IMG/VR virus record: IMGVR_UViG_2541047438_000018 | Span: 1 to 10,593 of that record | Source: a virus | Taxonomy: Duplodnaviria; Heunggongvirae; Uroviricota; Caudoviricetes | Strand: one strand, 5' to 3' | DNA length: 10,593 nucleotides | Shown: positions 1-6,000 of the stretch, one piece after another | Position numbering within the stretch: the first letter of the stretch is position 1 | Layout of the letters: each line of letters starts with the position of its first letter | Program-made: the position numbers

Positions 1-3000
1 ACCGGAATTGAAGCAGTTTTTACGTCAAAAAGCAATAACTTTTTTCTCTATACCAAAAGCCATAACCATTGGTTTGTACAAAATAAATTCTGCCACCTTT
101 AGCCAATGCTCAATGCGTCTTTCACAGGTTCTTAAACTCCATTCCGGATGTGCATCATTCAGCAGTTCAGCCATTTTGCGCTTAGTCATCCCCCGCCCCA
201 CATAACGCTGACTCAGAACATTGAGCAGCCCGGGATAACCTGCCAGTACTTCACCAATAACCCTGTCGATTATTAACGCCTCTGAATCGGTACAATGCAC
301 CAGCCAGCTTTTTTGCTTGCCGTTGATCATATCCCGCAAAAAAGCCTCAAGTTTAGGTTTGTCCAGACCTGCTTTTTTCATCCTCCGGAGCGCCTCGTTA
401 ATTGCCGTTTTTGTCAGCTTTTTAGAGGTCAGCAACTGGTTGAACATATTTCCCGTCTTACCGCCGCCAATATACGACCAGCGCCCCCACATACGTAGTT
501 TCCCCTGAATCCAGACACTTTCCAGCGTGGTGAGACGAAGGTGCTCTCCGCTTTTTCCTGTGTTCGTTGGGTAAATCATAAATAACCGTCCTTTCTCCAG
601 ATCTCTTGTGTGCGAAAAACACCTTCTGCATGCATCAGGCGCAATTCTTCTTTGGTGTAATCGCTGGTTTTTACTCTCCCGTCGATTAAATCGTGGCATG
701 AGTTACAGGCAATCGCTGCCTGCATATCGTGTGGCTTTATCGCTGTTCCGCACGTTCCCGCCAGCCTGTAATGCGCCAGCACAGAGGTTTCGGGATTGTG
801 ATTGCAGTAGCCAGGGATTCTGATCTGGCATATCTGGCCTTTAGCCGCTTTACGTAAATTCACCATTACGCAAACTCCAGTAGTTGTGCGGCCACATTTT
901 CAACTTCCTCCTGAGAGGAGAATTTACGGAACAGAATCCAGTTCCACAGCACATTCAGTACAGATTTATAAACCTGCTGAAACTCGACTTCGTCCATATT
1001 CGCAAAAGCGATGGATTTTGCCCGACGCCCACGGCTACCGTCCGGATAAATATGCTCGGTGTAAAATCCGGCCTGAATGGTTACCCACTCGCGGAAAGCC
1101 TCAAACGACTTTAGCAACGCCGTATCCCGGGTTCTACGAGTCGCAACGGTGTTAAGGTATTGCTCTGCGGCATCACTCAGGGCTGGCGTGTGTTCCCGAC
1201 CAACTGATTCGCACAGGTAATCAACGAAACCAGACAGCAGTTCTCGTTCGCGAGGCGTGATCGCCCCACCGACCGGAGTCCAGTAATCGAATCCCAGTTG
1301 CAGGAGTTTGAAAAAACGCTTGTGGAATGCGTAGTTACGCACACGCTTAAAATCTGCGTGTATCCACTCACCTATTTTGATTTGATGCAGAAAATCGCAA
1401 CTCTCCGGCGTCGCCGGGAGAAGTAAACCAGAAGAAGTTTGTTTGACCAGTTGTATATGCGCCATTTCTCAATCTCTCGATGGCGCAGTGCAGCAGATGC
1501 CAGTTGTTCAAGCTAGCACGCAAATTGTAAACCAGAATGCCAGGAAAAAACAAAACCCGCCGAAGCTGGTTGTGTGCGGTTGCGTTGAAGTCTCCTAGCC
1601 AAAGAGTAGCGGTGACCACTCCCCGCCGATAATCTTAGTTGTTTAATTTCGTAAGCTAACTAGGCTAAAAGCTCTCTGTTGTCTGCCTGTTGTACAATTA
1701 ACAAAATGAACAACGAACTAGATATACCAACGCCAGAATGGTGCAACAAATCCCAAACAACACAGCAATGCAACAATAACATATGTTATTTTCCTCTCAC
1801 GGGATTCAGTCCTGAATTCTCATAAAGCTAATCTTTTTTTAAAAACATACTGTTAGATCACATGCACTTTCTTTCTTAACATCGTTGACTTCGCATGCGA
1901 AGCGTTTAAAATCAACAATTTGCACTTAAGGTATTTATTTTCCCAAACACATAGAGAGTAAATTATGACTGAGAACACGACTCCAACAGCAGACTTTAGT
2001 CCTAGTAAAAGATTTTTTGTAAGTATGCTAACTCGAGATATCGACTTAAACGATGCCATACTTGATCTGCTTGATAACTGCGTCGATGGGGCTTTACGTA
2101 CAATAAAAGACACAAAAAAAACTTCAAAACCATATGAAGGATTTTATGCGAAACTTACGATTAATAAAGATGTCTTTATTATAGAAGACAATTGCGGAGG
2201 TATCCCTAAAAGCTTCCGAGAATATGCTTTTAAAATGGGACGACCCCATCAAAAAGAAGAAGAAAATGAAGGCACCGTTGGCGTCTATGGTATTGGTATG
2301 AAAAGAGCCATTTTTAAAATGGGTAGAGATTGCTCAATACAATCGAATAATCCCGATGGCGCATTCACTGTAGATATAACACCTGATTGGATCGATGGTG
2401 ATGGTTGGAAAATACCGATGCACGAGAGTGACTATGATAACAAAAATCCAACAGGCACAACTATAGAGATAAAAAAACTCCATTCTAATGTGGCACAAAA
2501 ATTTAATGAGAGCACATATCTTACTGATCTCTTTTTACAGATAAAACACTCATTGTCATTTATTATTCAAAAAGGATTTAAAATAGAATTAAATGGAGTT
2601 GTTGTTGAACATAATCCGATTAACATCATAACTGATCATTCTAAAATAGAACCATACATATATAAAGCTAAAATAGACGATGTTGATATCGATTTAGTTG
2701 TTGGCTTCTATAAAAATTTAGAAGATGACAATGATGATGTTTTAGAAAAAAGGAGTTCTGATGATGCTGGATGGACTGTCATTTGCAATGACCGCGTTGT
2801 TCTATATTGTGATAAGACACATCTCACAGGTTGGGGCTTTGCTAATGTACCAAGGTTTCATACCCAATTTATAGCAATTTCTGGGGTTGTTCGCTTTACC
2901 AGTAAAAACCCAGAAAAATTACCAATAACAACAACGAAACGAGGTGTCGATCTTAGTTCTACATTGTACAATGATGTACGAAATAAAATGATTGAAGGGA

Positions 3001-6000
3001 TGATGCATTTTATTCGATTCACCAATCAGTGGAAAGGTGAGCATCTTGAAGAAGGGAAAAAATTACTTAAGTCAGCTCAGTCACATGAAGCTCAATCTTT
3101 ATTTGAAATTACCCCACAATCAACTCCAGAAGATAAAAAAAATAACTGGTCCAACCCTAATAGAAACAAAAATGAGTGGCGATATACACCTAAGCTGCCT
3201 ACCCCAGTAAAAAAAAGCTCTACTGTACGAATAATCTTCACCAGAGAGAAAGAAGATGTTAAAATTTTATCTAAATATTTCTTTGGACATGAAGATGCTA
3301 GCGCTTCTGATGTGGGGATGCAATGCTTTGATACGGTGATTGAAGAGGTGAAGTGATGTCTGGACAATACATTCCCTATCACTTAAGGCATAATAAGTCT
3401 ATTGATAGAGAGATTTTTCTCGAAAGCCTAAACCTCTTAAGCAAAAGACTAAATATTCAAGAATATACATATATAGGTTTTGGTGGTCCGATGCTTGAAG
3501 ATTTTAGAATCATGCATAATCGTATCGCTCTTTCTGATATGATTTCTCTCGAAGAACAAGAGTCTACTCACATCAGACAAAAATATAATTTGCCTTATAA
3601 TTGTATTGATTGTAAGCTAATATCAGCTCATGACTTTATTCTTGATTATAGTTTTTCTAAACCATCAATAACATGGTTAGACTATGCCTCCCCGAAAAAA
3701 ATACAAACGGATCTAGATGATATACACTTACTAAGTACTAAAGTAAGCTCTTTTGATATTTTGAAGGTCACCTTCCCCATAAATCCTAGTTCTTATTACC
3801 AACGTAGAGTTGGAGAAAGTTTAGATATTTTTAAAGAAGCTTTTATTAATTCATTAAAATCATTGCTTGGGAAAAAGTATCTTGATTTTAATCTTCAGAT
3901 ATCAAATGCAGATCTTTCAGATCGTAAGATTAAAGCTCTTTTAATACGAATTATTACAAACGCTTTTAGATCAGCAATAGAACGTGGTCTTTCAGGACGT
4001 AAGGATAAGATTCAGTATTACCCATTATCCTTAAATCAATATAATGATGGCAGTCATACCATGTTGACAATATCAGGTTTTTTCTCCTCAGAACAAGAAT
4101 ATATAGAGTTATCTAAGGCATGCGACCTTTCTAACTGGCAATTTTATTCAACAAATTGGGAAGACGTGCAAGAAATAGCAATACCAACACTAACAATTAA
4201 AGAAAAGATAAATTTAGATAGTAAACTGCCTGATAAAGAAGCATATCAGGCAGCCGCTGAAGAGTTCTCTTTAAACGAAAATGAACGGGATAACTATTAT
4301 AAATACTATAGGTTATACCCTAACTTCCAAAGAATTATGGTTTAAATATTCGGGCTGTACTCTTTTATTTAATAAATTGTACAGCCCCTTTAATATATAT
4401 TCAGCAACTATTGGTGACACGCTATTTCCTATTTGTCTGAAACTATGCCATTTAGTTACATGAAAGCGAAACCAATCAGGGAAGCCTTGTAATCTAGCAG
4501 CTTCTCTTGGTGTAATCACTCTTGGATGATAAGGGTGGATCGGCCTGACGGCTTGAAAGCTTCCTTTATCTCTAGCGGTTCCCGCCCTTAAAGTCGGGCA
4601 AAAACCATTTGGATCTAATCTTGTAGATCTTGAAATTTTATCAGTTTCCCCAAAAGATAAGGAAGCATAACGCTCTTGGACGATTTTGCTATGTAATGTT
4701 CCGGTACATCCAGATATGATATTATTTTTTAACTTAGCGATCGATTCTGTATCACCAACATTCCGAGGGATCTGCCCCCATAATTTTTCATAAAATCCCC
4801 CTTTTCGATCTTTTTTAATTGTTCGCCAACTCTCAGAGTCTGATTGCCAATTGGCATCGATAATATCTGGTAATCCATACAAAGCATCTTTTACAGTAAC
4901 CGGATCAATCATTTTAGGCATAAATACTTCATCTGAAATATCAAGCTTCAATGATTTTTTTACACCGATAAAAAAATATCTAGTTCGAATAGTTGGAGCA
5001 CCATAATCAGATGCTTTTACCTTGATGGGATCAAGAATATCATAATCACCGCTAACCAAATTAAATGCTTTATTTCTAATGCCAGAATATTTCTCTTGCA
5101 TAATACCTGGAACATTTTCTGCCAAAAAGAATAATGGCTGTAATTCTGATACTAAACGGTAGAAATGCATGTAAAGCTGATTCCTGCTATCATCAGGATT
5201 CCCCTTGCCTATTGAACTAAATCCTTGGCACGGAGGACCGCCAATAATACCATCTATGGGCATATCGTTTTTAAAAAAACCCTTAATTATTTCTGCATTT
5301 AGTAAAGAAACATCTTCTTGGACGTGCAAACTTCTTGGAAAATTAATTGCGTGAGTATTAATAGCATGTTGATCAATTTCAACTGCCATTTTAACATCAA
5401 ATCCAGCACGTGCAGCACCAAGACTTAGACCTCCAACGCCAGAAAACAAATCTATTACATTCATATAGTTGCAACGTCTCTTATTAGTTTCTATGTATTA
5501 TAACACAACTGTTCTTGATGTTTTAACCCCATAAGATAACCTCATAAAGGCTATCCCTTGAAAATACCGGATCGCATAAATTTAATCTTTCAAAACTACT
5601 TGTCTATTAATCGAGCAATTTAAGGTTGTTTTAGTCATGTCGATACCGACATAGTTAACTAAACCCATTTCATCGTCCAACAAATGGGGGTAATACACTT
5701 TGATTTATAGTCGGGTGGGTTTTTCTCTATCTGCCTTTGGTGTTCATGCCCAAGGCAGATAGCCTCAAGCACCCGCAGCAATTCTACTTAACTATCCTTT
5801 TCCCGCAAACCGTTTTTATCCCCAGCGGCAAATCGAATACACCACCAGCGCCACCGCCATCGCAATTCCTACCGTTGTGAATGCTTCAGGCCAGGTCATT
5901 GATTCACCTCCTGCGGCGGTTCTGGTAGCGACATCCAGTGGGTTGCTTGCCTAAGATCATTACCCGGACTAACTGCTATACCTCCGCGCCGGAACGTGCC

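Follow-up and report, generated by a model that had tools for sequence, protein, structure and literature searches.

The window analysed here is a stretch of 10,593 nucleotides (nt) of viral DNA (IMG/VR record IMGVR_UViG_2541047438_000018, Caudoviricetes), and the subject of this report is an AT-rich island within it that carries three genes, here called A, B and C. An earlier note, made from the sequence alone, had placed three genes in this interval: the first with a MutL/MORC-type GHKL N-terminus, the second coupled to it, and the third a C5 cytosine methyltransferase overlapping the 3' end of the second. The open reading frames (ORFs) and profile matches agree with it on each of these points:

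1965 to 3356, plus strand: gene A, ORF for a prokaryotic MORC-family ATPase of 463 amino acids (aa)
3356 to 4345, plus strand: gene B, ORF for a PF20553 (Methyltransf_35) protein of 329 aa, predicted to be translationally coupled to A
4313 to 5464, minus strand: gene C, ORF for a C5 cytosine DNA methyltransferase (PF00145) of 383 aa
4313 to 4345, no strand assigned: convergent 3'-end overlap of B and C, 33 nt, from the ORF coordinates

In TGATG (3354-3358) the stop codon that ends A overlaps the first codon of B, which indicates that the two genes are translationally coupled. Gene B could start at 3353 or 3356 (330 or 329 aa), and its homologues begin at the ATG at 3356. The trio is real and recurs far beyond chance; it represents a widespread and unnamed module, unusual in that its true bacterial MORC is paired with a protein of methyltransferase fold and a nuclease is absent.

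In protein A an N-terminal GHKL domain (Pfam HATPase_c_3, 2.9e-9) precedes a transducer domain of the S5 fold; the C-terminal ~130 aa form a helical extension for which no match was found. GHKL motifs I-IV read DLLDN38, D75NCGG and GVYG109IG111MKR and are invariant in 70/70 homologues, as is the conserved basic residue of the S5 domain, K325 in TTTKRG. The MORC signature motif, GhXhhpXXRhl, is found as G269-W-T-V-I-C-N-D-R277-V-V, and residues G269, C274, N275 and R277 are kept in all 70 diverged homologues. Because the GHKL domain, the S5 domain and the MORC signature motif are all present, and invariant in the 70 homologues, we regard A as a bona fide prokaryotic MORC. The closest folds to its AlphaFold2 model (25 homologues in the alignment; predicted local distance difference test, pLDDT, 80.9) are MORC3, SMCHD1 and MORC2, and a sequence profile search of the PDB with A returned only MORC3 and MORC4, at E 0.02-0.19. 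Compared with the eukaryotic MORC2, MORC3 and SMCHD1, A lacks the CW, coiled-coil and hinge parts, has its own bacterial C-terminal extension, and has as its general base an Asp (D34; codon window 2064-2066) where Glu is usual, a substitution common to 70/70 members. This Asp may make ATP turnover slow and switch-like. The same residue occupies the general-base position in the longer GHKL paralogues described below.

The earlier note had found no recognisable domain in the partner, B, and here it was mistaken. Pfam PF20553 (Methyltransf_35, 'putative O-methyltransferase') matches B over its whole length (2e-89; 300.4 bits, the cut-off being 27; B residues 2-329 on model positions 1-308 of 309), and RefSeq already calls the protein an O-methyltransferase. 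The AlphaFold2 model (pLDDT 87.7; predicted template modelling score 0.87) has a class I Rossmann S-adenosylmethionine (SAM)-methyltransferase fold with family-specific N-terminal and helical elaborations. Since the folds that it matches best belong to generic class I methyltransferases, N2-guanine RNA enzymes first, the 'O-methyltransferase' label is not favoured over other chemistries. B keeps conserved motifs of the cofactor-pocket type: in 69-70 of 70 diverged sequences, the GFGG loop (G44), E/D67 where strand 2 ends (the motif II acid) and W108-L-D110-[Y/F]111 where strand 4 ends are retained. Its motif IV is D-[Y/F], not the canonical (D/N)PP(Y/F), and an N-terminal cluster (Y9/R12/K15/R19) is also conserved, together with Y230, D232 and E284. 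At 50% identity the PF20553-type partner family divides into at least 2,215 clusters. All of the best 150 among the 2,215 representatives are stand-alone proteins, mostly of 320-345 aa with a few fragments and slightly longer forms of up to 381 aa, and none of these 150 carries a fusion that would reveal a function. A PDB sequence profile search with B gave no solved relative, and no literature on the PF20553/Methyltransf_35 family was found. Pfam, PADLOC, NCBIfam and fold searches detected no nuclease domain or fold in either A or B.

Gene C, read from its motifs and profiles, is a canonical C5 DNA methylase. It matches PF00145 over its full length (2.6e-61), TIGR00675 (9.6e-46) and the PADLOC MTase_II model (2e-98), and its translation contains DLFSGVGG (motif I), GPPC79Q (IV), AE116NV (VI) and IGNSV (X). 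Its sequence is near-identical to PDB entry 3G7U (E 1.3e-254, residues 1-367), to which our literature search tied no functional study. The methylase is absent from the list in the methylome paper on O111 Shiga toxin-producing Escherichia coli, a study by which 5-methylcytosine was not detectable. C also matches the DruM and DrmMII models, through generic C5-methylase similarity only.

The linkage of the three genes was examined from both ends. In 17 loci seeded with B (Cyanobacteria, Verrucomicrobia, Alpha- and Gammaproteobacteria, Bacteriovoracaceae), a homologue of A lies directly upstream of B in 17/17, with a C5 methylase close by in 14. From A as seed, 80 metagenomic and 72 viral-contig (IMG/VR) loci were obtained, which fall into 65 clusters at 70% identity; across both collections B directly follows A in 59/59 assessable clusters, and in 38/41 there is a C5 methylase no more than 3.5 kb from A. 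The conserved neighbourhood with C5 methylases for which the earlier note had asked is thus present. Two loci required inspection: in L047, scored as lacking B by a first filter, B is present, and in L066 B is degenerate next to an intact A and methylase. The methylase comes first in a co-directional operon in 19 of the 41 clusters, and in 14 it is convergent with overlapping 3' ends, the layout seen in the window, on the opposite strand and typically starting about 940-1010 nt past the end of A. Vsr is the only other recurrent neighbour family (20/65 loci by all-against-all clustering), often between the methylase and A; no other recurrent nuclease, helicase or further component was found among the neighbours of the 65 loci, and the island itself contains no superfamily II (SF-II) helicase.

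A co-varies with B (Mantel rho 0.50) more tightly than either does with the methylase (0.25-0.26), and the partial correlation between B and the methylase, examined as a sign of matched specificity, is weak (0.16). Of the three proteins B varies most: its mean p-distance is 0.69, compared with 0.56 for A and 0.54 for C. The methylase of the module is recurrent but exchangeable. In Scytonema and Kastovskya (L004, L021, L022) a methylase-less A-B pair at about 7001-9438 lies between NDH-1/Mrp-type Proton_antipo genes, which suggests a chromosomally fixed copy; an unlinked methylase or another role is possible there.

The surroundings of the trio are those of mobile elements and of genomic conflict. 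Type I restriction-modification (R-M) loci contain it as HsdM-HsdS-[C-A-B]-HsdR or just upstream of HsdR; a McrB_N/NOV_C gene adjoins it in one context, and toxin-antitoxin genes are among its neighbours, with RelB-like, ParE and CdiI genes near it in some loci. Mobile-element neighbours include the Tn7-like TnsE or TniQ/TniB, an integrase and a TrwC relaxase. A Rouxiella prophage has the trio beside the Q antiterminator in the same layout as the window. The trio is rare on plasmids (2 hits in 72,556), and a single deposited phage genome of 50,697 carries it, that of the Pseudomonas temperate inovirus PfAC20. In PfAC20 (PP058144, L183) an A-like gene, a B-like gene and a C5 methylase gene are co-directional at the accessory end (280-3711), and a second, short cytosine methylase lies at 5438-6082; the authors of the PfAC20 study treated the trio region as an 'incomplete' R-M methylase system.

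In the window, the island has a GC content of 0.349 (0.353 in A, 0.318 in B and 0.365 in C) and its flanks have 0.483 and 0.509, so that the island is compositionally foreign, as had been noted, and the contrast is real; the figures first given for it (~30% against ~55%) did not hold. Its DNA is 100% identical to EDL933 2157567-2161692 (E. coli O157:H7, a laboratory-standard pathogen), where the host element is the Rac-family lambdoid prophage CP-933R, with intR, xisR, recET, kilR, sieB and ydaV on one side of the island and DUF1367/NinB-like, DUF1364 and DUF1133/Q-like genes on the other. The stretch is carried at >=99% identity by 173 of 5,426 complete E. coli genomes, in single copy and on the chromosome in all, and a DNA-level search of deposited phage genomes with it gave no match. 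The slot occupied by the island lies between a ninB-like gene and the ead/DUF551 genes. In other lambdoid prophages the equivalents of window ~1490-1590 and ~5717-5822 are joined via a short insert bearing hokD, accompanied in one of the compared prophages by a Ser/Thr kinase and a PP2C phosphatase (regions compared: window 1490-1760 and 5717-5830; locus L027 2430-4710). Since other prophages join its flanks around this insert, the ~4.1-kb island (about 1590-5716) fills a variable cargo slot, an accessory-gene (moron) position as had been proposed, and by sequence comparison it replaces the hokD toxin-antitoxin cassette.

A longer MORC-type GHKL paralogue (570-610 aa) adjoins C5 methylases, alone or alongside A-B, in hosts that include Pluralibacter, Vibrio, Cellvibrionaceae and Serratia, sometimes with an HNH_2 gene:

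L005, 9067-10830: longer GHKL paralogue
L007, 10246-11964: longer GHKL paralogue
L009, 9105-10922: longer GHKL paralogue
L025, 9672-11498: longer GHKL paralogue
L068, 4054-5934: longer GHKL paralogue
L174, L175 and L177, near 5965-7750: longer GHKL paralogue

This paralogue and A have the GHKL+S5 module in common (hhalign 4e-48). In the paralogue's C-terminal domain of ~200 aa, R, E and H residues are conserved and matches to DUF4145 (HEPN-like) are only weak; it may be an RNase-type effector arm. In Serratia (L025/L026) the region upstream of A-B holds, ~650 nt away, an HNH_2 endonuclease gene (5572-6345), together with the longer GHKL gene and a methylase, an arrangement that resembles the paraMORC1 + HNH neighbourhoods of Iyer et al. 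2008 (PMC2292703). HNH_2 is not a general feature of the module.

The trio had been said to match no named system, and this holds: neither A nor B is covered by a PADLOC 2.0 model, PHROGs places both in families of unknown function, and NCBIfam offers nothing for either except a 12-bit MzaB hit. That hit (NF041932, 12.4 bits against a cut-off of 850) was rejected as a sign of the MZA system, as the window has no MzaA or MzaC-E neighbours. A classical type II R-M system was likewise rejected; a DNA methyltransferase is present, and a cognate restriction endonuclease is absent from the trio and, Vsr excepted, from its recurrent neighbours. Nor does A have the marks of a MutL or very-short-patch repair protein, as it lacks the MutL C-terminal domain and has no linked Vsr in the window. 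The module, although unnamed, has been flagged computationally. In DefensePredictor (Science 2026), an independent machine-learning screen, B (WP_000016656.1) stands among the uncharacterised clusters from 3,000 E. coli strains under the label 'Predicted novel defense gene'; its mean log-odds is 9.75, where the strict threshold is 4. Neither A nor B is in the DefensePredictor table of cloned and screened transcription units, and a study of EDL933 defence reports OI-172 systems only. Literature searches on the WP accessions of the three proteins, on anti-phage roles of bacterial MORCs, and on defence by a GHKL protein with a cytosine methyltransferase found nothing.

The closest published precedent is that of Iyer, Abhiman and Aravind (2008; PMC2292703), who place prokaryotic MORCs and paraMORCs in predicted R-M operons, as the earlier note had stated, with function predicted only. 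About 70% of the MORC operons described there have an SF-II helicase and a nuclease, and a minority of neighbourhoods have a methylase without helicase, some with paraMORC1 and HNH. Our module has the GHKL+S5 architecture, the MORC motif, the linkage to C5 methylases and Vsr, and the sporadic, laterally transferred distribution of their MORC class, and it fits the minority class with a methylase and no helicase; it differs from the operons at large in having neither helicase nor nuclease, and the PF20553 partner is not mentioned in the sections consulted. The HEF_HK (PF19191) and Response_reg_2 (PF19192) pairs described by Bellieny-Rabelo et al. 2021 (PMC8011034) have C5 methylases, Vsr and HNH_2 as linked genes. 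These pairs resemble A-B in joining a HATPase_c_3 GHKL protein to a small Rossmann-like partner, in their linkage to C5 methylases and in their occurrence in Enterobacterales and other groups; the partner here is a 329-aa methyltransferase fold rather than a receiver-like domain, and identity was rejected, PF19191 and PF19192 being absent from A and B at E <= 0.1. VcSduA (Shedu type I-D, or paraMORC3), an experimentally validated anti-phage GHKL-nuclease fusion (Adams et al. 2025; PMC12137116), also has a GHKL ATPase, proposed there to control the effector. It carries a fused DUF4263 PD-(D/E)xK nuclease, in contrast to the separate methyltransferase-fold protein and linked methylase seen here, and since A has no such domain an assignment to Shedu type I-D was also rejected.

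Based on these observations, we propose, with a probability of about 0.55, that the island forms a three-gene conflict module, self-contained and horizontally mobile, in the style of an R-M system, in which C marks self and A-B acts without cleavage. The module is supported by the adjacency of A and B, the linkage to a methylase, the tighter co-evolution of A with B, the conserved residues, the mobile and defence contexts, the cargo slot that it shares with hokD, the R-M role predicted by Iyer et al. 2008 for MORC and methylase neighbourhoods, the validated defence by the paraMORC3 protein VcSduA and the DefensePredictor score. The mechanism that we infer from there extends to complex formation, a DNA substrate, discrimination by methylation, an anti-phage function and the logic of expression. 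C would methylate the resident DNA as a self mark, while A and its coupled partner B would form a second arm, probably a stoichiometric complex, aimed at DNA without the mark or at DNA undergoing de novo methylation by C. By analogy with other GHKL+S5 proteins, A may be an ATP-dependent dimerising DNA clamp. B, rather than a nuclease, would be the effector or reader, most probably an enzyme that uses SAM to act on nucleic acid. Phage or plasmid DNA entering the cell would then be excluded in a BREX-like way, with no classical cleavage.

In bacteriophage exclusion (BREX) and other non-cleaving exclusion systems, self is marked by a DNA methylase, ATPases are needed and no classical restriction endonuclease takes part. 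The module shares with BREX the marking by a methylase, the ATPase and the lack of a restriction endonuclease; it differs in that no PglZ, BrxC, BrxL or PglX homologues are present and in that its methylase is of the C5 rather than the N6-adenine type. The phage early-right genes of the window are all on the minus strand (replication 8429-10153, nin-region 576-1465, Q-like 25-699), in the orientation of gene C and opposite to that of A-B. Because C is co-oriented with early-right transcription and A-B runs antisense, establishment and induction would favour methylation over the A-B arm, an arrangement that would fit the methylase-first logic of R-M establishment.

Several observations weigh against this proposal. 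Both A and B are acidic, with a pI of about 6.0, which is atypical of avid DNA binders, and the best fold matches of B are RNA methyltransferases. About 7% of clusters have A-B without a linked methylase, mostly cyanobacterial pairs between ndh-type genes. The absence of any PADLOC 2.0 model for A or B counts in the same direction, as does E. coli strain 2013C-3513, in which the methylase is frameshifted and A and B are intact. The latter, if real, argues against simple lethality without the methylase. All three genes are kept in 172 E. coli genomes; in strain F6294 a single deletion takes the methylase and two thirds of B, with A intact, and in 2013C-3250 it is A that is frameshifted. Both frameshifts are indels in homopolymers of long-read assemblies (C5 at 4793-4797 in 2013C-3513 and A8 at 3208-3216 in 2013C-3250) and may be assembly errors or real on/off variants. 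These E. coli variants leave the question of defence and toxicity unsettled. The view of the island as an R-M-like defence module is therefore to be kept in part: the MORC, the recurrent trio and the mobile and defence contexts stand, while 'restriction', which implies a nuclease, is not supported, none being found in the trio or, Vsr excepted, among its recurrent neighbours. The earlier interpretation was right in kind, as to a MORC-linked, methylase-associated conflict module borne as prophage cargo, wrong on the partner and unproven on restriction.

A more specific form of the proposal is speculative, and we think it unlikely. Here a bacterial MORC clamp, at DNA lacking the Dcm mark or methylated de novo, would deliver a SAM-dependent methyltransferase to inactivate the invader chemically, for instance through methylation of a Watson-Crick face such as guanine N2, and/or would compact and silence the DNA. 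If true, this nuclease-free MORC mechanism would be a prokaryotic forerunner of eukaryotic MORC silencing, in which methylation serves as both self mark and weapon.

The module could also act on RNA. As an abortive-infection guard similar to PrrC or RloC, A would sense interference with the methylase or with methylation and license B to methylate rRNA or tRNA, bringing translation to a stop. The RNA methyltransferases among the fold neighbours of B, the weak DUF4145 (HEPN-like) hits in the sister GHKL paralogue's C-terminal domain and the published HEPN-paraMORC fusions all point this way. The fold matches of B, however, cover the generic Rossmann core only (about 150 of 329 residues), the DUF4145 hits are below the Pfam threshold, and the characterised MORC and GHKL+S5 relatives act on DNA. 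To our knowledge, no toxin works by RNA methylation. We consider such a guard improbable, although it deserves some weight.

The recurrent linkage to Vsr brings to mind a role in maintaining or repairing the epigenome, with A as a MutL-like matchmaker for very-short-patch repair or methylation fidelity and B as a helper enzyme, so that the module would lower the mutational cost of the C5 methylase and not attack foreign DNA. Two thirds of the loci, the window included, are without a linked Vsr, however; A is nearer to the MORCs than to MutL and has no MutL C-terminal domain; and B, with its conserved methyltransferase fold, would have no obvious task. In addition, a conflict system accounts better for the defence-island contexts and for a distribution that is patchy and borne by mobile elements, and we regard a repair role as distinctly unlikely.

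Alternatively, the trio might serve the phage, the prophage modifying its own DNA through C and an A-driven B in lytic growth such that the progeny escape restriction. Orphan methylases are common in phages, C is co-oriented with early-right transcription, B has conserved cofactor-type motifs and the module is frequent in predicted prophages. On the other hand, A-B is antisense to the phage early operon, as is typical of cargo expressed in the lysogen, and the trio is common outside phages, in type I R-M operons, Tn7-like elements and chromosomes. The one carrier among the 50,697 deposited phage genomes is a temperate inovirus, and no virulent phage was found. Such counter-defence is very doubtful.

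Finally, eukaryotic MORCs silence DNA through ATP-dependent clamping and compaction, and ATP-driven compaction by the MORC clamp could be the sole function here, with B as a non-catalytic, methyltransferase-fold adaptor or specificity subunit; the non-canonical D-[Y/F] of motif IV and the highest mean p-distance of the three proteins, as expected of a specificity element, would suit this role, but the retention of G44, E/D67 and D110 in 69-70 of 70 sequences is the pattern of a cofactor site under selection and makes it highly improbable.

A defensive function would add a widespread immune system whose effector is a methyltransferase-fold protein rather than a nuclease. The spread of the module is considerable, with >=2,215 partner clusters (50% identity) and thousands of ATPase clusters in many phyla. 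It would also provide the first experimentally tractable function of a bona fide bacterial MORC, the proposed ancestor of the eukaryotic MORC silencers. Because PADLOC, and DefenseFinder as used in the studies consulted, do not report the module, the defence inventories of enterohaemorrhagic E. coli and of Pf prophages are probably incomplete.

The borders of the island and its candidate signals are as follows:

1589 to 1964, no strand assigned: left junction and region upstream of gene A, GC 0.40
1885 to 1912, plus strand: candidate sigma-70 promoter on the gene A side, TTGACT-16-TAAAAT, score 10/12
5465 to 5716, no strand assigned: region upstream of the methylase gene to the right junction, hokD-type prophage homology resuming at ~5717
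5526 to 5497, minus strand: candidate promoter on the methylase gene side, TTAAAA-18-TATAAT with TG extension, score 10/12

Promoter-like and terminator-like sites are no more frequent in the window than in shuffled sequence. At the left border, homology to the hokD-bearing prophages ends near 1590, a weak patch continuing as far as ~1657. Around 1625-1760 there is a degenerate hok-like remnant, with window 1625-1750 being 82% identical to an annotated Hok/Gef gene region; the remnant contains no intact hok ORF, and Rfam at gathering thresholds detected no RNA family, and no Sok-type RNA, in the whole window. Exactly on the right junction, at window 5712-5760, lies an inverted repeat, CTATCTGCCTT ... 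AAGGCAGATAG, common to hokD-type prophages, which is a terminator-like or hok-locus structure and part of the backbone rather than of the island.

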